Below, in pieces: positions 2,409 through 39,949 of a stretch of DNA of 64,000 nucleotides (its first letter is position 1; every line of letters starts with the position of its first letter). The stretch lies in assembly GCF_056712565.1 (NCBI RefSeq), contig NZ_CM160072.1. The stretch is one strand, 5' to 3'. The position numbers were made by a program, and so were the translations under genes. The notes beneath the pieces were generated by a model. The model had not been told where the DNA came from. It did not search any database and was given only the letters and a program-made list of their open reading frames with translations.

Positions 2409-4319
2409 TTACCTGGAGGATGGTATCGCAAGGAAACGAACCGCACGGGCAATGTCACGGGTGCGCGGCGCTGGCGGCAGACTGGCGAGAAACGTCGCGC
2501 CGTAAGGGCGCATCACCAGCCGATTGTCGCAAATCACTAACACGCCGCGATCGTCGGCGTCGCGAATCAATCGCCCTACCCCCTGCTTGAGAGTAATGAC
2601 CGCATCCGGCAGTTGTACTTCATCGAACGGATCACCACCGCGCAAACGGCAATCTTCCATGCGTGCTTTTAATAGTGGATCATCCGGCGAGGTAAACGGC
2701 AATTTGTCGATAATCACCAATGACAATGTATCGCCACGCACGTCCACCCCTTCCCAGAAACTGCTGGTTGCCACAAGAAGCGCGTTACCGGCGCTGACAA
2801 ATTGCTGCAACAGTTGCCCTTTGCTGGTTTCCCCCTGCAACAAAACGGGAAGCGTCATGGTAGCGCGGAACTGCTCGGCCAGATCGCGCATCATGGCGTG
2901 CGAGGTACAAAGCATAAAACAACGACCGTTGTTAGCTTCGATGATCGGTCGCAGCATTGCCGCCAGTTGCCGTGCGGAACCCGGTTGATTAGTTTGCGGC
3001 AGGTTGCGCGGCACACAGAGTAACGCCTGGCGGCTGTAATCAAAGGGGCTGGGTAACAGCAACGACTCTGCCAGTTCAATGCCAAGCCGCGAGGTGAAAT
3101 GATGCAGATCGTCGTTCACCGACAGCGTTGCTGAGGTAAAGATCCAGCTACCGGGTTTTTGCGCCATTAACTCTTTGAATTTATCCGCCACGCTGAGCGG
3201 CGTGAGAGCCAGAGTAAAATGGCGCGAAGTGCATTCGTACCAGTAGCTGTAGCCCGGCTGATTGATCTCTTTTAGCCGTTTCAGCCGTGTGCGATATAAC
3301 GTGGCGCGTTCAAATGCCGCATCCAGCAAGGCGGAACGCCCCAGCGACAGTTTCGCCACGTCATAACAAAGTTCCAGAGTGTCATCGAGCAGTAAAAATG
3401 CCCGCTGAATTTGCGGATTAGCTAACAGCTCACGCAGGTTACCGCGATAACCTGGCTCACCGAGTTGCAGGCGAAAATCCTGCGCACTCTGGGCAAGACG
3501 GTCAGCGCACTTTTGTAACTGCTGGGTGTCTTTTAATTCGGTGCGGTAGGCGATGGTGATGTCTTTTGCCAGGTCGAGCAGTTGTCGACTGGAGAGTGAC
3601 TGACCAAAATACTGGCTGGCAATGTCGGGCAGCTGGTGGGCTTCGTCGAAGATCATGACGTCAGCTTCCGGGATCAGTTCGCCAAATCCACTCTCTTTCA
3701 CCACCATATCCGCCAGAAAGAGATGATGGTTTACCACCACCACATCGGCGTCCATCGCTTTTTTGCGTGCTTTGACTACAAAGCAATCTTTATACATCGG
3801 GCAGTCGCTGCCAAGGCAGTTATCGTTGGTGCTGGTGACCAGCGGCCACGCCTGTGAATCTTCCGCCACGCTGACGCAGGTGCTGATATCACCATCGACT
3901 GTTTGATTAGACCAGGAGCGCAGCAGGATCACATCGCTTAATATTTGTACCGGCAGATCGCCGCCCGCTAGCGCCTGTTGTTCGAGACGTTCGAGGCAGA
4001 GGTAGTTTGAGCGCCCTTTCAGCAACGCCACGTTGCCCGTATATTTCAACGCCTTTGAAACCGTTGGCAAATCGCGGCTGTAGAGCTGATCCTGCAACGC
4101 TTTTGAACCGGTCGAGATAATGACTTTCTTTTTCGCCCGCAGCGCAGGGGCCAGGTAAGCGTAGGTTTTGCCCGTACCGGTTCCGGCTTCCACCACCAGC
4201 GGCTGGCCTTTTTCTATCGCCTGGGTGACGGCTACCGCCATCTGTCGCTGTGGTTCTCGCGGCTTAAAGCCTGGTATCGCTTTCGCCAACTGACCGTCTG
4301 GTGCAAAATCGTCCGTCAC
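2409..4319 (-). CDS. yoaA: DinG-family ATP-dependent DNA helicase YoaA
   Basis: 636-aa ORF; Walker A AGTGTGKT, DEAH box (IFDEAHQL), Fe-S cysteine cluster region. Confidence 0.9.
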   Translation of the reverse strand: MTDDFAPDGQLAKAIPGFKPREPQRQMAVAVTQAIEKGQPLVVEAGTGTGKTYAYLAPALRAKKKVIISTGSKALQDQLYSRDLPTVSKALKYTGNVALLKGRSNYLCLERLEQQALAGGDLPVQILSDVILLRSWSNQTVDGDISTCVSVAEDSQAWPLVTSTNDNCLGSDCPMYKDCFVVKARKKAMDADVVVVNHHLFLADMVVKESGFGELIPEADVMIFDEAHQLPDIASQYFGQSLSSRQLLDLAKDITIAYRTELKDTQQLQKCADRLAQSAQDFRLQLGEPGYRGNLRELLANPQIQRAFLLLDDTLELCYDVAKLSLGRSALLDAAFERATLYRTRLKRLKEINQPGYSYWYECTSRHFTLALTPLSVADKFKELMAQKPGSWIFTSATLSVNDDLHHFTSRLGIELAESLLLPSPFDYSRQALLCVPRNLPQTNQPGSARQLAAMLRPIIEANNGRCFMLCTSHAMMRDLAEQFRATMTLPVLLQGETSKGQLLQQFVSAGNALLVATSSFWEGVDVRGDTLSLVIIDKLPFTSPDDPLLKARMEDCRLRGGDPFDEVQLPDAVITLKQGVGRLIRDADDRGVLVICDNRLVMRPYGATFLASLPPAPRTRDIARAVRFLAIPSSR

Positions 4320-4450
4320 ACTACCCCCTGTTGATTTGAACAGGGATTATGTCAGGATGAGGGCGCTTTCGCCAGTTGAAGTGGTGACGGCGACCTCACA
4401 TTGTGGCAGTCTTTGCAGCACGAAAATGGAAGGATAATGAGGACAAAATG

Positions 4451-4795
4451 ATGACTATCGTTCGTATCGATGCTGAAGCCCGCTGGTCTGATGTGGTGAT
4501 CCACAACAACACGCTCTACTACACTGGTGTACCGGAAAACCTCGACGCCGATGCTTTTGACCAAACCGCCAACACGCTGGCGCAGATTGACGCCGTGCTG
4601 GAAAAACAGGGCAGCAATAAATCGAGCATTCTGGATGCCACCATTTTCCTGGCTGATAAAAACGACTTCGCGGCGATGAATAAAGCGTGGGATGCCTGGG
4701 TTGTCGCGGGTCATGCGCCGGTGCGCTGCACGGTACAAGCGGGTTTGATGAACCCGAAGTATAAAGTTGAAATTAAGATTGTGGCTGCGGTGTAA
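4451..4795 (+). CDS. yoaB: RidA/YjgF-family protein YoaB
   Basis: ORF-track frame 4403..4795; recognised protein begins at internal MTIVRIDAEARWS (ATG 4451). Confidence 0.8.
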   Translation: MTIVRIDAEARWSDVVIHNNTLYYTGVPENLDADAFDQTANTLAQIDAVLEKQGSNKSSILDATIFLADKNDFAAMNKAWDAWVVAGHAPVRCTVQAGLMNPKYKVEIKIVAAV

Positions 4796-9510: not shown

Positions 9511-11109
9511 ATGCAAAAAGCACAACGGATCATTAAAACCTATCGCCGTAATCGAATGATTGTTTGTACGATTTGCGCACTCGTTACGCTCGCTTCGACC
9601 CTGAGCGTGCGATTTATTTCACAGCGTAACTTAAATCAACAACGGGTAGTACAATTCGCCAATCACGCTGTAGAGGAATTAGATAAAGTACTGCTTCCCC
9701 TACAGGCAGGTAGCGAAGTCTTGCTTCCGCTGATTGGTCTGCCCTGCTCTGTCGCCCATTTGCCATTACGTAAACAGGCGGCAAAACTCCAAACTGTGCG
9801 ATCCATTGGCCTGGTGCAAGACGGCACACTTTATTGCTCCAGCATTTTTGGTTATCGCAATGTGCCCGTCGTGGACATTCTGGCTGAACTTCCTGCACCG
9901 CAACCACTTTTACGACTGACGACCGACCGTGCCCTGATAAAAGGCAGTCCGGTTTTGATTCAATGGACGCCTGCAGCGGGCAGTAGCAATGCTGGGGTCA
10001 TGGAGATGATTAACATCGACTTACTGACGGCAATGCTCCTTGAACCACAACTGCCGCAAATCAGTAGCGCCAGCCTGACGGTGGACAGTCGGCATTTGCT
10101 CTATGGTAATGGGCTGGTAGATTCCCTTCCGCAACCTGAAAACAATGAAAACTATCAGGTTTCTTCGCAACGCTTTCCTTTTACCATTAACGTTAATGGT
10201 CCGGGGGCTACGGCGCTGGCATGGCACTATCTTCCAACACAATTACCGCTGGCGGTGCTGCTAAGTTTACTTGTGGGCTATATCGCCTGGCTGGCGACCG
10301 CTTACCGAATGAGTTTTTCCCGCGAAATCAATCTGGGCCTGGCGCAACATGAGTTCGAATTGTTCTGCCAGCCTTTGCTTAATGCGCGCAGCCAGCAATG
10401 TATTGGCGTAGAGATTTTGCTGCGCTGGAACAATCCGCGTCAGGGCTGGATTTCGCCGGATGTGTTTATTCCTATCGCGGAAGAACATCATTTAATTGTG
10501 CCACTGACCCGCTATGTGATGGCAGAAACCATTCGTCAGCGCCATGTTTTCCCGATGAGTAGTCAGTTTCATGTTGGCATTAACGTCGCACCCAGCCATT
10601 TTCGCCGTGGTGTGCTGATAAAAGATCTCAATCAGTACTGGTTTAGCGCTCACCCGATTCAGCAACTGATCCTCGAAATCACCGAACGCGATGCCTTACT
10701 GGATGTTGATTATCGGATTGCCCGCGAGCTACATCGTAAAAACGTCAAACTGGCGATTGATGACTTCGGCACCGGCAATAGTTCATTTTCCTGGCTTGAA
10801 ACATTACGTCCTGACGTGCTGAAAATTGATAAGTCATTTACCGCAGCTATAGGTTCTGACGCGGTTAACTCGACGGTGACCGATATCATCATCGCACTGG
10901 GGCAAAGACTGAATATTGAACTGGTGGCGGAGGGTGTGGAAACGCAAGAACAGGCGAAATATTTGCGCCGTCATGGCGTCCATATTTTGCAAGGGTATTT
11001 GTACGCACAGCCGATGCCACTATGTGATTTTCCCAAATGGCTGGCGGGCAGCCAACCGCCGCCCGCCCGGCATAATGGACATATCACCCCCATTATGCCG
11101 TTACGTTAA
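9511..11109 (+). CDS. pdeD: c-di-GMP phosphodiesterase with periplasmic CSS-motif domain and EAL domain (PdeD/YoaD)
   Basis: ORF-track frame 9481..11109; likely start MQKAQRIIKTYRRN (9511); EAL-domain motifs EFELFCQP and DDFGTG. Confidence 0.8.
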   Translation: MQKAQRIIKTYRRNRMIVCTICALVTLASTLSVRFISQRNLNQQRVVQFANHAVEELDKVLLPLQAGSEVLLPLIGLPCSVAHLPLRKQAAKLQTVRSIGLVQDGTLYCSSIFGYRNVPVVDILAELPAPQPLLRLTTDRALIKGSPVLIQWTPAAGSSNAGVMEMINIDLLTAMLLEPQLPQISSASLTVDSRHLLYGNGLVDSLPQPENNENYQVSSQRFPFTINVNGPGATALAWHYLPTQLPLAVLLSLLVGYIAWLATAYRMSFSREINLGLAQHEFELFCQPLLNARSQQCIGVEILLRWNNPRQGWISPDVFIPIAEEHHLIVPLTRYVMAETIRQRHVFPMSSQFHVGINVAPSHFRRGVLIKDLNQYWFSAHPIQQLILEITERDALLDVDYRIARELHRKNVKLAIDDFGTGNSSFSWLETLRPDVLKIDKSFTAAIGSDAVNSTVTDIIIALGQRLNIELVAEGVETQEQAKYLRRHGVHILQGYLYAQPMPLCDFPKWLAGSQPPPARHNGHITPIMPLR

Positions 11110-11112
11110 CGC

Positions 11113-12669
11113 TTACTCATCTTCATCGTGCGCCGGTTGCTCTTTAACAATGCGAACCAGATCAACACGATAATCATTGGCTTCAATGATGGTGATATGC
11201 AGTGGCCCTACATCAATCACATCGCCCACACGGGGAATGTGACCATTTGCCGAGATCACGAGGCCCGCGGCCGTCGCGATATCATCGTCATCGGCAAGGT
11301 GCTCAACATCAAGCGCCTGCTGCAAGGCATGCAAATCTGTACCGCCTTTTACCAGCCAGCCGTCACCGTCGGTAATGATTTCCGGCGTTTCGTCAGCGTC
11401 CGGGAATTCACCCGCAATGGCTTCCAGCACATCCAGCGGCGTGACCAGACCTTGTACCACACCAAACTCGTTGGTCACGATAACAAAGCTCCCGCGAGCA
11501 CGACGCAGCACGCCCAGCAGGTTGATCGGATCGAGGGTTTCCGGGACGATAATCGCCGGAGACGCCGAAGCTATCGCCGCCACATCAACTCCCTCTTCCA
11601 GCGCCACCAGCAGTTCTTTAGCACGTACGATGCCGATAATTTCATCCAGTTCACCGCGACATACCGGGAACAAACTGTGCGGTGAGGAGAGCAGTTGCTC
11701 GCGGATTTCATCGACCCCGAGATTAGCATCAACCCAGCTTATTTCACCGCGCGGCGTCATGATCCCGCGCAGAGAACGCGACGCCAGCGTCAGTACGCCG
11801 TTAATCATGTAACGTTCTTCTTCGGCAAACGCACCTTCCGGGATCGGCATCGGCATCGGGTTATCGGCATCGTGCTGAACATTGGCCTGACGTTTCCCGC
11901 CCATCAAACGCAGGATGGCATCGGCAGTACGCGCTCGCAGCGGCAAAGTCGACTGGTGACGAATAAAGTTGCGACGCGCAATCTGGTTAAACACTTCGAT
12001 GATGATCGAGAAGCCAATCGCGGCATACAGGTAACCTTTCGGAATGTGGAAACCGAAACCTTCTGCCACCAGACTCAGACCAATCATTAACAGGAAGCTC
12101 AGACAGAGCACCACCACCGTGGGGTGCTGGTTAACGAATCGCGTCAGCGGTTTTGATGCCAGCAGCATAACCGCCATCGCAATCACTACCGCCGCCATCA
12201 TCACCGGCAAATGGTTAACCATCCCTACTGCAGTAATTACCGCATCCAACGAGAAGACGGCGTCAAGGATGACAATCTGTGTGACGACCACCCAGAAACT
12301 GGCGTAGCCTTTACCGTGGCCGGAATCATGATCGCGGTTTTCCAGCCGTTCATGCAGTTCAGTTGTTGCTTTGAACAGCAAGAATATGCCCCCGAACAAC
12401 ATAATCAGGTCGCGTCCGGAGAAGGAGAAATCCATGACGGTAAATAGCGGTTTGGTCAGCGTGACCATCCATGAAATCAGCGACAGCAGCCCCAGACGCA
12501 TAATCAGCGCCAGTGATAATCCCAGCAAACGCGCTTTATCGCGTTGTTTTGGCGGCAGTTTGTCAGCAAGAATGGCGATGAAGACCAGGTTATCGATACC
12601 CAGCACAATTTCGAGAACAACAAGCGTGAGTAGCCCCGCCCAAATCGAGGGGTCCATTAAGAATTCCAT
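11113..12669 (-). CDS. yoaE: UPF0053 inner-membrane protein YoaE (TerC + CBS + CorC_HlyC domains)
   Basis: 518-aa [38 protein letters not shown]...; TerC-like membrane N-terminus and CBS pair C-terminus. Confidence 0.85.
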
Positions 12670-15884: not shown

Positions 15885-16343
15885 ATGACAATCACGGACC
15901 TGGTACTGATTCTTTTCATCGCCGCACTTCTGGCCTTCGCGATCTACGATCAGTTCATCATGCCCCGCCGTAACGGCCCCACCCTGCTGGCAATTCCTTT
16001 GCTCCGGCGTGGTCGCATCGATAGTGTTATCTTCGTCGGATTGATTGTCATTCTTATCTATAACAACGTCACGAATCATGGCGCGCTAATAACAACATGG
16101 TTATTAAGTGCACTGGCTCTGATGGGTTTTTATATATTCTGGATCCGCGTTCCGAAGATCATCTTTAAACAAAAAGGTTTTTTCTTCGCCAATGTCTGGA
16201 TTGAATATAGCCGAATCAAAGCGATGAACTTGTCGGAAGATGGCGTGTTGGTGATGCAATTAGAACAGCGCCGGCTGTTAATCCGCGTTCGAAATATCGA
16301 CGATTTGGAAAAAGTTTATAAGCTTCTCGTTTCAACTCAATAA
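15885..16343 (+). CDS. yobD: UPF0266 inner-membrane protein YobD
   Basis: 152-aa hydrophobic [26 protein letters not shown]...; synteny. Confidence 0.75.
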
Positions 16344-16388
16344 GTTATGAATTTAGCCAAAGCTATGTTTAGTGTATTTTTAATAATC

Positions 16389-16408
16389 AGACATAGCTTA
16401 GGCTATAT
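16389..16408 (+). promoter_or_regulatory. Candidate MntR operator upstream of mntP
   Basis: Near-palindrome ACATAGCttagGCTATAT; a second half-site-like AAAGCTATGTTT at about 16358-16370. Confidence 0.4.
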
Positions 16409-16464
16409 TACCTCTTCCCTTATTTGTTTTTTATTTTAACGTTTCATTGATATATAAATCTAAA

Positions 16465-16483
16465 TGAAAATCGTTATCAATAA
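16465..16483 (+). promoter_or_regulatory. Candidate Fur box upstream of mntP
   Basis: AATGAAAATCGTTATCAAT resembles Fur consensus GATAATGATAATCATTATC. Confidence 0.35.
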
Positions 16484-16544
16484 AACAATAAAATAATATA
16501 TTCCAACAGTTGTCTTATATTCTCAAAATATGTTAAGGTTGCGC

Positions 16545-16771
16545 CCTCATTTGGGGAGTAGCTGATTTCCAGATTCCGGAAATGTACGTGTCAACATACT
16601 CGTTGCAAAACGTGGCACGTACGGACTGAACACTTTCAGTCAGGCGAGACCATATGCACATCAATCGCTATGCCTGCATGAACGCGAAAACCATCGCGGC
16701 TTGTTGTTCATGTATGCATGTTTGCTGGGGGCGATGATGTGTTTTATGGATACCCCGGTCAGGACGTTGTC
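16545..16771 (+). promoter_or_regulatory. yybP-ykoY family Mn2+ riboswitch and long 5' leader of mntP
   Basis: Conserved aptamer elements GGGGAGUAG (16553-16561) and GAGACCAUAU (about 16645-16655) directly upstream of mntP. Confidence 0.6.
16654..16737 (+). CDS. Candidate 27-codon upstream ORF in mntP leader ([27 protein letters not shown])
   Basis: ATG immediately 3' of riboswitch aptamer, open for 27 codons, stops 34 nt before mntP ATG; no strong Shine-Dalgarno seen. Confidence 0.3.
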
Positions 16772-17338
16772 ATGAATATCACTGCTACTGTTCTTCTTGC
16801 GTTTGGTATGTCGATGGATGCCTTTGCTGCATCAATCGGTAAAGGTGCCACCCTCCATAAACCGAAATTTTCTGAAGCATTGCGAACCGGCCTTATTTTT
16901 GGTGCCGTCGAAACCCTGACGCCGCTGATCGGCTGGGGAATGGGCATGTTAGCCAGTCGGTTTGTCCTTGAATGGAACCACTGGATTGCGTTTGTGCTGC
17001 TGATATTTCTCGGCGGGCGAATGATTATTGAGGGTTTTCGTGGCGCAGATGATGAAGATGAAGAACCGCGCCGTCGACACGGTTTCTGGCTACTGGTAAC
17101 CACCGCGATTGCCACCAGCCTGGATGCCATGGCTGTGGGTGTTGGTCTTGCTTTCCTGCAGGTTAACATTATCGCGACCGCATTGGCCATTGGTTGTGCA
17201 ACCTTGATTATGTCGACATTAGGGATGATGGTTGGTCGCTTTATCGGCTCAATTATTGGGAAAAAAGCGGAAATTCTCGGCGGGCTGGTACTGATCGGTA
17301 TTGGCGTCCAGATCCTCTGGACGCACTTCCACGGTTAA
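16772..17338 (+). CDS. mntP: Mn2+ efflux pump MntP (YebN)
   Basis: ORF-track frame 16718..17338; recognised start [21 protein letters not shown] (16772); DUF204 repeats. Confidence 0.85.
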
Positions 17339-18144
17339 TAAGAACGCTGCCAGAGGTGAATATTAAAGTCCGTCTGGCAGTCGAACACTTCTTTTGCTGC
17401 CAGTGCTTGCCAGACTTCAGGCTTCGCACGCCAGGCAAACGGCGTCATCTGCAATAATGCGACGGCTTCATCACCGCGAAGACGCATCAGATAACACAAC
17501 TCATCACTCTGCTGTAATGTAAAACCTTTCAGTTGTTCTGCATGAGGTGCATGAAGATGTACTTCATTGTAAATCAGCCCCTTCAGCTCAATTAAGTGTC
17601 TCGGTCCCGGCGTGGCAGTAATGACCCAACCGCCGGGCTTCACTACTCGCACTAATTCTTCTGCTTTACACGGCGCGTAAATACGTATTATGGCGTCCAT
17701 ACTGGTATCGGAGAACGGCAAACGGTGGCTGGAAGCGACACAAAAAGTGACCTGCGGATAGCGTTTCGCCGCCGCTTTTATCGCTACCTTCGAGACATCC
17801 AGGCCAAACGTGGTGATTTCGGGCAACGCATCAGCAAATGCGTGTGTGTAATACCCTTCACCACAGCCAATATCCAGCACCGCCGCGGCCTTTTCATCAA
17901 GCCGTTCCCGCAATTGGCCGACAATTGCATCACGCAGCGGCTGATAATGTCCGGCATCTAAGAATGCGCGGCGTGCTTGCATCATTTCCGCGCTGTCGCC
18001 CGGATCACGAGACCGTTTATGCTGAACGGGCAGCAGATTGACATACCCTTCTTTCGCCATATCAAACTGATGTCGCTGGGGACAGATATAGCTGTTTTTT
18101 TCACGCGAAAGAGGCTGATGGCAAAGTGGACAGGAAAACGACAT
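17335..18144 (-). CDS. rlmA: 23S rRNA m1G745 methyltransferase
   Basis: 269-aa [31 protein letters not shown]... with N-terminal Zn-binding cysteines and SAM-binding motif [10 protein letters not shown]. Confidence 0.85.
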
Positions 18145-18235
18145 GACAACTCCGGCAGGATACTAAAGGCCGCAAGTGTAACGCGAATCATGCGGCGGGC
18201 AAATATCCGAACGACTGGAGCGAAGATAAAACAAA

Positions 18236-18262
18236 GTAAAAAGCCTCGCATTCGACGAGGCT
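18236..18262 (-). terminator. Rho-independent terminator after cspC
   Basis: On minus strand GCCTCGTCGAATGCGAGGC hairpin followed by TTTTT. Confidence 0.65.
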
Positions 18263-18309
18263 TTATAGCGAGATTGAAGCGTATTCACACTTCAGATCAG
18301 TGGATTCGA

Positions 18310-18519
18310 TCAGATAGCTGTTACGTTAACAGCTGCCGGACCTTTCTGACCGTCCTGAATTTCGAACTCAACGTTCTGACCTTCAGCCAGAGTTTTGAAA
18401 CCATTACCCTGGATAGCGGAGAAGTGTACGAACACATCTTTGCTGCCATCAGCCGGAGTAATGAAGCCAAAACCTTTAGACTCGTTGAACCACTTAACCT
18501 GACCTTTAATCTTTGCCAT
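18310..18519 (-). CDS. cspC: Cold-shock-family protein CspC
   Basis: 69-aa [40 protein letters not shown]... (RNP1/RNP2 motifs). Confidence 0.95.
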
Positions 18520-18531
18520 TTGAAAAATTCC

Positions 18532-18675
18532 TTAGATTGTTTTCTTCGCCCGCAGGCATAACATAGATAAAACTGACACATTACTGCATGAGGCACCAAT
18601 ATAAGGCTCGGCAGAGAAGCGGTATTCAACGTCAACGTGTTTACTCAGGACTTCTTTACTGAAAATGCCACACAT
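18532..18675 (-). CDS. yobF: Small protein YobF (47 aa), co-oriented immediately upstream of cspC
   Basis: Hand translation [47 protein letters not shown]; GAGGT Shine-Dalgarno upstream. Confidence 0.8.
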
Positions 18676-19345
18676 AAACAGAACTGTACCTCGTTTAACC
18701 CGAAATCTGTTATCACATACAACGTTAATTATGGCAAGCCATTTTTAAACATGTCTCGATCAGACGCACAAATCTCGATACGTCTTCCACTTTTTTGCAC
18801 ACTTATGCAACGGAATACGCGCCGATATATCATTGTGCTTAACCTTGCCAGTTCAGGCAGATACTTAAACTGGCGTATTTTTTCTAACATAGTTCAATAA
18901 GTTCAGTTGTTCCAGGCCAGTGAGAGAAGTTATTACATAGTGCGTGCAATATCACATTTTTTGCTATGCAATGAATAAAAAGTTATATCACTTTTTCTCA
19001 TAAAACAGTCAGTTAACGGCTATCAATTACCCTAAAGAGAAGTCAATCCCCAAAGGGATTGTAAATTTAAAATAAGAAAAATTGATGAATGAGCAAAAAA
19101 ATCAAGAGAGAAACGTTTCGCTAATAAATAATACCACGCTTAATCACAAATCCGATGTAAACATCCTAATAAATTAATGAGGGAAATATCTTTTTCTGAT
19201 ATCCCGTTACGCAAATTAATAATATGATAATTATTTGAAGTCAGACCAGAGTTTTAATTTGAAGCAGCTGCACCATGACAGTGCGTATAATCAGCATGAA
19301 TTGAGTAACCCTTCAACGACGGGGTTACTCAAGATTGAGGAAGGA

Positions 19346-33205: not shown

Positions 33206-33397
33206 ATGTTCGCGCTGGTACTTTTTGTTTGCTACCTGGATGGCGGTTGTGAAGATATTGTTGTGGATGTCTACAACACGGAACAGCAGTGTCTTTATTC
33301 TATGAGCGATCAACGGATCCGCCATGGCGGTTGTTTTCCGATTGAGGATTTTATAGATGGTTTCTGGCGACCTGCACAGGAGTACGGTGATTTTTAA
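33206..33397 (+). CDS. yebW: Small uncharacterised protein YebW (start uncertain; ORF frame opens at 33122)
   Basis: In-frame MFALVLFVCYLDGGCEDIVVDVYNTEQQCLYSMSDQRIRHGGCFPIEDFIDGFWRPAQEYGDF. Confidence 0.6.
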   Translation: MFALVLFVCYLDGGCEDIVVDVYNTEQQCLYSMSDQRIRHGGCFPIEDFIDGFWRPAQEYGDF

Positions 33398-34057
33398 TTA
33401 TTGCAATTGCACAAGAGTCAGTTCTCCCCCAAAGACAGCACCGGTATCAATATAATGCAGGTTGCCAATATCCACGCGATGGCGCAAAGGTGTATGACCA
33501 AACCAGAAATGATCAGCACCTGCAATTCCCTGCCCTTTTTGGCGTTCACCTAATCGCGAGCGGCTCCACAAGACCTGATGCAAATCGACGTCCTTTTGCC
33601 ATTCATAGACATCATCTGGATAATCGGCATGAGCAATAACATGTTTGCCGGTGCGACTGTGTAATTCAAGAATAAAGGGCAAATGCTGACATTTTTCCAG
33701 CGCCGTTTTCGCTTGTTTCTGGTGATTATCTGCCAGCGCAATAAACCAGTCGCCGCCATTTATCAACCATAAAGACATCTGCCGGGATGCCAGCGCATCC
33801 ATCGCCATCTGTTCATGATTGCCTCTTACCGCACGAACCCAATGTTGTTCCAGTAACTGCAGGCAACGTAAACTTTGCGGCCCACGATCGATAACGTCTC
33901 CCACTGAGATAAGTAAATCTCGCCACGGATCAAAACGACAATGCCATAATTTGCGGCGCAACTGCTCAAGACAACCGTGTATATCGCCTGAAAGCCAGAT
34001 ATGTCGCCATTGATGACCCGCAATTCTCTGATAAACGGGCGCAGGCTGTTTCATCAA
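33398..34057 (-). CDS. pphA: Ser/Thr protein phosphatase 1 (PPP family)
   Basis: 219-aa ORF MMKQPAPVYQRIAGHQWRHIWLSGDIHGC...; metallophosphatase motifs GDIHG, GDVIDRG, GNHE. Confidence 0.85.
   Translation of the reverse strand: MMKQPAPVYQRIAGHQWRHIWLSGDIHGCLEQLRRKLWHCRFDPWRDLLISVGDVIDRGPQSLRCLQLLEQHWVRAVRGNHEQMAMDALASRQMSLWLINGGDWFIALADNHQKQAKTALEKCQHLPFILELHSRTGKHVIAHADYPDDVYEWQKDVDLHQVLWSRSRLGERQKGQGIAGADHFWFGHTPLRHRVDIGNLHYIDTGAVFGGELTLVQLQ

Positions 34058-37202: not shown

Positions 37203-39949
<2,747 letters not shown>

Follow-up and report, generated by a model that had tools for sequence, protein, structure and literature searches.

The overlapping stop codons of the convergent genes mntP and rlmA, and candidate signals for transcript ends within the neighbouring coding sequence

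Convergent genes that overlap at their stop codons have been described as a class of their own. The modal overlap length in prokaryotes is 4 bp, the tetranucleotides TTAA, CTAA, TTAG and CTAG are the typical convergent stop/stop overlaps, and 58 convergent overlaps were counted in E. coli (Lillo & Krakauer 2007, PMC2174442). According to the same study, the rho-independent terminators of convergent overlapping genes must sit in the coding sequence of the partner, and such terminators were predicted for 23 of 116 genes. A second body of work concerns Rho-dependent E. coli mRNAs, which end precisely after stable stem-loops that lack U-tracts (Dar & Sorek 2018, PMC6061677). Exonucleases trim these 3' ends back to the protective stem-loop, rut-like sequence is found just downstream of them, and some of them lie inside a neighbouring coding sequence (PMC6061677). 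Thirdly, bidirectional terminators (Ju et al. 2019, as summarised in bioRxiv 10.1101/2022.10.23.513370) are associated with convergent pairs that have overlapping 3' ends and stem-loops on both strands.

We analysed the junction of mntP and rlmA within a 64,000-nucleotide stretch of contig NZ_CM160072.1 (assembly GCF_056712565.1), referred to as the window. The overlap of the two genes is an ordinary member of the 4-bp stop/stop class and not unusual: the stops share one of the named tetramers, and both are real genes with correct 3' ends. The features discussed are collected in Table 1.

Table 1. Features at and around the mntP/rlmA junction, and the convergent junctions of the window.
Feature	Position in window	Strand	Description
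Mn2+ riboswitch (yybP-ykoY), mntP leader	16545-16641	+	Rfam RF00080, 40.9 bits, E 3.9e-9
mntP CDS	16772-17338	+	188 aa, Mn2+ efflux pump, manganese exporter (ORF list, RefSeq)
Candidate Rho loading region	17218-17297	-	C-rich, G-poor stretch; C 26, G 12 in 80 nt
rlmA mRNA steady-state 3' end	17298	-	Term-seq (PMC7815308), coordinates converted
Hairpin H1	17304-17324	-	9-bp stem, 3-nt loop, GCGUCCAGA-GGA-UCUGGACGC (rlmA strand)
TTAA tetranucleotide, rlmA/mntP junction	17335-17338	both	4-base convergent overlap, common to both stops
rlmA CDS	17335-18144 (start 18144)	-	269 aa, 23S rRNA m1G745 methyltransferase (ORF list, RefSeq)
Hairpin H2	17345-17383	+	core CUGCCAGA (17347-17354) paired with UCUGGCAG (17373-17380), 18-nt loop
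yoaE/pdeD junction	11109-11113		gap 3
pphA/yebW junction	33397-33398		gap 0
ptrB/exoX junction	37862-37865	ptrB -, exoX +	4-base overlap TTAA
ruvC/yebB junction	about 58007-58009		gap 1
Remaining six convergent junctions			gaps 45-216 bases

The shared stop codons and their conservation

According to the original prediction, the stops of mntP and rlmA overlap within a TTAA tetranucleotide and no intergenic DNA separates the genes. The sequence, the open reading frames and the RefSeq annotation agree with both statements. The mntP stop is the TAA at 17336-17338 on the plus strand, the rlmA stop is the TAA formed by the reverse complement of 17335-17337, and each is the first in-frame stop of its gene. 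Both proteins reach the C-terminus of their NCBIfam equivalog models, MntP over residues 1-188 of 188 (NF008546, 414.6 bits) and RlmA with residues 1-268 aligned to model positions 1-271 of 272 (NF008300, 471.2 bits). Alternative stop or start assignments that would part the two genes, the outcome on which the prediction could have failed, were ruled out by the first in-frame stops and these full-length family-model matches. Two small open reading frames that run across the junction (17194-17457 on the plus and 17253-17438 on the minus strand) were rejected as candidates for hidden genes, being other frames of two well-supported genes.

The same arrangement is found in the reference genomes. 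E. coli ATCC 11775 is 100% identical to the window, and RefSeq there carries the identical 4-base overlap (mntP at 3373-3939 on the plus and rlmA at 3936-4745 on the minus strand of the extracted locus). RefSeq likewise annotates a 4-base mntP/rlmA overlap in O157:H7 and in K-12 MG1655 (mntP 1905688-1906254, rlmA 1906251-1907060), and the locus was found in 5419 of 5426 complete E. coli genomes. The overlap is thus real, yet in E. coli it is already public annotation.

In E. coli two stops follow each other directly at the end of mntP (TAA TAA, 17336-17341). The second in-frame TAA (17339-17341) is partly made by the Tyr269 codon of rlmA on the other strand, and it is missing from the other 79 aligned species loci (best 80 of 408 relatives).

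Tight convergent junctions are common in the window. The annotation gives 11 of them, of which two overlap by 4 bases and three more have a gap of 0-3 bases, so that nearly half are without space for a terminator. In this strain the annotation marks exoX, at the second 4-base overlap, as a pseudogene interrupted by an internal stop.

Conservation of the overlap in other Enterobacteriaceae, which the original prediction had named as a check, was evaluated by scanning RlmA against species-representative genomes; the resulting 80 Enterobacteriaceae loci are the best 80 of 408 relatives. Within this set, mntP lies tail-to-tail with rlmA in 80 of 80 loci, the orthologues in the 80 species end at the equivalent place, and the 4-base overlap is kept in 65 of 80, as TTAA (57 loci), TTAG (7) or CTAG (1) read in the rlmA sense. 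One apparent exception (L029) is caused by an assembly N, and the identical junction sequence, GGTTAA, is present further downstream. In nine Klebsiella/Raoultella-type loci a new upstream TGA ends rlmA and leaves 3 bases between the genes; of three other loci, one has the genes directly abutting (gap 0), one a gap of 9 and one an overlap of 13 bases (again among the best 80 of 408). At about 3817-3864 of each of two further loci, from Lelliottia sp. (L024) and Huaxiibacter chinensis (L039), the first base of the tetramer is changed from T to G; the resulting GTAA no longer ends rlmA, whose frame continues for 48 nt into antisense mntP. These two loci are a natural example of overlap growth through stop loss.

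This pattern can be read from the geometry of the stops. TAA read on the opposite strand is TTA, and hence TTAA, CTAA, TTAG and CTAG can each close one gene per strand. The two middle bases are fixed because any change in them destroys both stops. The outer bases can toggle only between T and C or between A and G, and in E. coli these exchanges are silent in both genes (GGT/GGC for Gly in mntP, TAT/TAC for Tyr in rlmA), which is why different genera have retained the arrangement. The tetramer variants found among the best 80 of 408 relatives are exactly those that the double-stop constraint permits. Conservation of the junction thus follows from this constraint, and no special function is needed. 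The junction is an inherited, constrained and mutationally locked state.

Transcript ends on the two sides of the junction

For rlmA, a 3' end has been mapped by Term-seq at MG1655 1906214(-), where it was classified as 'primary, antisense' and found in two growth conditions (Adams et al. 2021, PMC7815308, supplementary file 1). MG1655 positions were converted to window coordinates and checked against the sequence; there are no indels between the strains in this region. The rlmA end, which like every Term-seq end marks the end of the stable RNA and not the position at which polymerase stopped, falls within mntP, 37 nt past the stop of rlmA and 6 nt past hairpin H1. H1 sits in the mntP codons for V-Q-I-L-W-T and folds with about -16 kcal/mol (z -2.6 to -3.0). 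The RNA flanking the end is CGAUGC/CGAUCAGCAC, and the rlmA RNA terminates in ...GCGUCCAGAGGAUCUGGACGCCGAUGC, without a U-tract.

Supplementary file 2 of PMC7815308 places a Rho region at MG1655 1906268(-), with a Rho score of 10.2 (p 1.3e-31) and with upstream/downstream reads of 145/22 in untreated and 342/530 in bicyclomycin-treated cells. These published reads correspond to an approximately 10-fold rise in read-through to antisense mntP upon Rho inhibition. On the rlmA strand C is about twice as frequent as G 40-60 nt from the stop, and the candidate Rho loading region begins directly beyond the mapped end (Table 1). Together, the published maps show that rlmA transcription passes its own stop into antisense mntP, that Rho limits this extension and that the stable mRNA ends past H1. 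The original prediction that the transcripts must read into each other is thereby supported for rlmA, by the mapped end antisense to the last codons of mntP and by the rise in the absence of Rho. The rlmA end has the features of the Rho-dependent class, namely bicyclomycin-sensitive read-through in the published data, a stem-loop without a U-tract, and C-rich, G-poor sequence downstream. By analogy with this class, H1 probably serves as an exonuclease-blocking stem-loop of the rlmA mRNA.

A consensus scan for intrinsic terminators found none near the junction and none on the plus strand past the mntP stop; its sole minus-strand match past the rlmA stop is weak and lies 250 nt downstream (17084-17064). 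Neither hairpin has the form of an intrinsic terminator, i.e. a G+C-rich stem-loop followed by a U-tract, given that H1 lacks a U-tract and the U-run past H2 begins 8 nt from the stem. The original prediction had concluded from the overlap that there is no room for terminators. This holds for intergenic space, but it does not extend to termination signals as such, since a stem-loop and a C-rich Rho stretch sit within the coding sequence of the partner, a location documented as normal in E. coli (PMC6061677, PMC2174442).

Similar patterns are found at other tight junctions of the window. The ruvC transcript has a Term-seq 3' end at MG1655 1946817(-), also 'primary, antisense' (PMC7815308), which lies just past a hairpin inside yebB. 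Rho regions have been reported antisense to yebB (score 7.8), antisense to ptrB (MG1655 1927253 on the plus strand, score 6.3) and antisense to pdeD (score 5.5) (PMC7815308). The junctions ruvC/yebB, ptrB/exoX and yoaE/pdeD thus show a pattern like that of rlmA/mntP.

On the plus strand, no 3' end of mntP is present in the Term-seq tables (PMC7815308) or in the SMRT-Cappable-seq supplements, probably because the Mn riboswitch leader holds mntP off. A Rho termination site has been reported at MG1655 1905535(+) with a score of 3.5 (PMC7815308); the position corresponds to 16619 in the window, inside the leader riboswitch, which suggests Rho-dependent attenuation in the mntP leader. The leader keeps mntP largely silent in the conditions used for mapping, and expression of the gene is poor without Mn2+. 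The riboswitch match is below the Rfam gathering score of 45, and a default scan misses it. In some E. coli genomes the leader of mntP is annotated with a hypothetical protein of 40 aa (O157:H7 locus, positions 755-877, about 16653-16775 in the window), the stop of which overlaps the mntP start by 4 bases in those genomes. In the window, no reading frame of at least 40 aa is listed at about 16653-16775; the O157 match to the leader is one base longer than the query, so that the 40-aa frame may be the product of an indel.

An Rfam search of 16300-18300 at E ≤ 1 found no known RNA family at the junction, the matches being the Mn riboswitch and spurious microRNA models. The latter are weak matches on both strands of a palindrome just past yobD (16339-16420) and surely spurious; this palindrome, located between yobD and the promoter region of mntP, probably represents a REP-like element or a hairpin that terminates transcription in both directions. 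On the minus strand, the region of yobF and cspC (18235-18695) matches the Rfam cspA thermoregulator with 135.6 bits. The gene called cspC in the K-12 record is named cspE by PGAP in ATCC 11775 and O157:H7.

The plus-strand hairpin H2 lies within codons 255-267 of rlmA, beginning 7 nt downstream of the stop of mntP. Compared with dinucleotide shuffles, its plus-strand fold does not stand out (z -0.5). Symmetry with H1 and the codon statistics described below suggest that H2 may be the 3' stem-loop that caps the mntP mRNA. With a zero spacer, a single shared bidirectional hairpin is impossible, because it would lie upstream of the stop of one of the genes and the message of that gene would not be ended intact. 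As there is no intergenic DNA, two hairpins are therefore expected, each beyond the stop of its client and inside the other gene.

We consider it highly probable that mntP and rlmA are two unrelated genes joined tail to tail in an ordinary 4-base overlap that evolution has locked in place, and that their transcripts are ended by Rho and by hairpins inside the neighbour. Transcription of rlmA runs past the stop into antisense mntP, where Rho halts it, and the stable mRNA ends 6 nt past H1, the hairpin encoded by the last codons of mntP. H2, encoded by the last codons of rlmA, would do likewise for the mntP mRNA, and beyond H2 Rho would act on the antisense-rlmA RNA, which is not translated. The 3' ends of the two mRNAs overlap by at least 41 nt, as measured for rlmA; the overlap would come to about 90 nt if H2 is used.

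Codon choice in the two hairpins

Pairing in the two stems was followed across the aligned species (best 80 of 408 relatives). Standard pairs occupy 74.6% of cells in H1 and 84.6% in H2. The outer stem of H1 is clade-specific, being restricted to an Escherichia/Salmonella/Citrobacter/Enterobacter group and a Kluyvera group, and roughly half of the species do not form it (at one pair, 43 of 76 are unpaired). About 90% of 78 distinct species sequences form the 7-bp core of H2, and at one pair of H2 there are five double compensatory changes from C-G to U-A.

Such numbers could also arise if the hairpins were by-products of protein motifs, Q-I-L-W in MntP and C-Q-T ... W-Q-R in RlmA, whose codons happen to be reverse complements; the rlmA end after H1 would then be incidental and neither hairpin would be selected as RNA. 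Consistent with this, the invariant stem cores consist mostly of codons for Trp (TGG) and Gln (CAG), which allow few synonymous changes or none, and most stem pairs never vary or depart only through unpaired cells. Because most of the stem core never varies, we used a recoding null, in which the protein of each species was kept fixed, synonymous codons were resampled and the stability of the folds was compared. For the H1 region, the median z was -1.89 on the rlmA-transcript (antisense) strand, with 56% of species in the 5% tail, and -1.19 with 26% on the mntP coding strand. For the H2 region it was -1.71 on the mntP-transcript (antisense) strand, with 45% of species in the tail, and -1.31 with 31% on the rlmA coding strand; these figures refer to the best 80 of 408 relatives, overstate the number of independent observations since the species are related, and use small codon-usage tables.

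As a control, every non-overlapping window of both genes was treated in the same way in 38 species (12 windows in mntP and 14 in rlmA, 26 in all). On the antisense strand, the terminal window of mntP was the most extreme of its 12 (-1.95, vs -1.23 to +0.42 for the others), and that of rlmA the most extreme of its 14 (-1.73, vs -0.55 to +0.92). Individual codons point the same way. RlmA residues 255 and 264 are each occupied by six different amino acids, yet the third base is the pairing C in 73 of 80 and 77 of 80 species, respectively, while third positions in the H2 loop vary freely; Cys256 of RlmA is encoded by TGC in 77 species and TGT in 3, compared with 491 vs 259 in the background (all among the best 80 of 408). 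A third-base C before TGG is frequent in mntP and rlmA in general (459 of 716, with the hairpin sites themselves counted), and codon context could account for part of the H2 signal.

On these statistics, codon choice in both hairpin regions appears to favour pairing beyond what the proteins need, and more strongly on the strand of the partner. That real sequences fold better than recodings of the same protein, that only the two terminal windows of 26 stand out, that amino-acid-variable positions keep the pairing C and that the effect is larger on the partner strand, which protein constraint does not predict, all speak against the hairpins as by-products of protein motifs. The relatedness of the species, which inflates the shuffle statistics, speaks for them, but overall we regard that origin as unlikely. 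We propose tentatively, and with confidence falling somewhat short of even, a reciprocal capping of 3' ends: the last codons of each gene would be under synonymous-site selection for a stem-loop that defines and protects the mRNA end of its partner, H1 for rlmA and H2 for mntP. If so, throughout Enterobacteriaceae each of the two coding sequences would be constrained by the stability of the other gene's transcript, and if this were the general rule where convergent E. coli genes abut so closely, reciprocal capping would be recognisable as one of the constraints that act on terminal codons.

Interference, collision and comparison with known systems

A regulatory role of the overlap was also considered, in which Mn2+-induced transcription of mntP would collide or pair with rlmA transcripts, and the reverse, and manganese export would be coupled to 23S rRNA m1G745 methylation through interference or through RNase III cutting of the 3'-3' duplex. 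The rlmA mRNA does cover the last 41 nt of the mntP frame including its stop, antisense transcription over mntP increases about 10-fold without Rho, the tail-to-tail layout is present in 80 of 80 Enterobacteriaceae loci (best 80 of 408), and head-on RNA polymerase collisions have been documented at convergent E. coli genes (bioRxiv 10.1101/2022.10.23.513370). The double-stop constraint, however, fully accounts for the conservation; comparable junctions occur all over the window between genes of unrelated function; with Rho and the two hairpins in place, the overlap does not exceed tens of nucleotides; and the Klebsiella/Raoultella group has separated the stops with no sign of compensation. Moreover, the complementary segments are folded on themselves, and intermolecular pairing should therefore be disfavoured. 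In the literature searched, no functional link between mntP and rlmA was found, and the single paper that names both merely includes them among the genes of a deletion. Regulatory interference between mntP and rlmA is speculation, and we judge both the device and the coupling to be very improbable.

Collision-driven bidirectional termination of the SEnd-seq type, in which hairpins pause converging polymerases that stop each other independently of Rho, would fit the palindromic stem-loops that fold on both strands and flank the junction, and in bioRxiv 10.1101/2022.10.23.513370 the class is said to control hundreds of convergent E. coli genes. It is described there as Rho-independent, however, whereas the published bicyclomycin data make rlmA read-through strongly Rho-sensitive (score 10.2), and with the weak transcription of mntP in the conditions of the mapping, opposing polymerases would be rare. 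We hold this reading to have a very small chance of being correct in general and regard such termination as unlikely on the mapped rlmA side.

The ordinary locked overlap with ends set by Rho and by hairpins in the neighbour is therefore the reading that we retain. Its discovery value is small, since the overlap is present in every public E. coli annotation, the class has been in the literature since 2007, and the mapped end of rlmA, like its dependence on Rho, was already contained in a published supplementary table (PMC7815308). The junction serves rather as a worked example that zero intergenic distance does not mean unterminated transcription, and that signals for transcript ends and stability can sit in the codons of a neighbour. 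A modestly new element is the apparent bias of the terminal codons of both genes toward hairpins on the strand of the partner. If confirmed, it would be a small addition to the known synonymous-site constraints at gene ends and a new example of known principles, with relevance for recoding and refactoring projects in which convergent genes are changed at their 3' ends.

Compared with the bidirectional terminators of Ju et al. 2019, as presented in bioRxiv 10.1101/2022.10.23.513370, mntP/rlmA is alike in being a convergent pair with overlapping 3' ends and two-strand stem-loops. It differs from what is described there in having two hairpins instead of one shared intergenic element, in that these lie inside coding sequence, and in the Rho dependence of the mapped side. 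The likeness to the Rho-dependent stem-loop 3' ends (PMC6061677, PMC7815308) is closer: the rlmA end is bicyclomycin-sensitive and precise, lies a few nucleotides past a stem-loop without a U-tract and within the coding sequence of a neighbour, and is followed by sequence with more C than G. Here the differences are that the stem-loop is made of the last codons of the convergent gene, and that a mirror hairpin lies beyond the shared stop. From the 4-bp convergent stop/stop class (PMC2174442) there is no difference in kind. As in that class, mntP and rlmA share a named tetramer, TTAA, at the modal overlap length, are functionally unrelated and would have any terminator in the coding sequence of the partner; what they add is depth of conservation, with the overlap kept in 65 of 80 loci (best 80 of 408 relatives).
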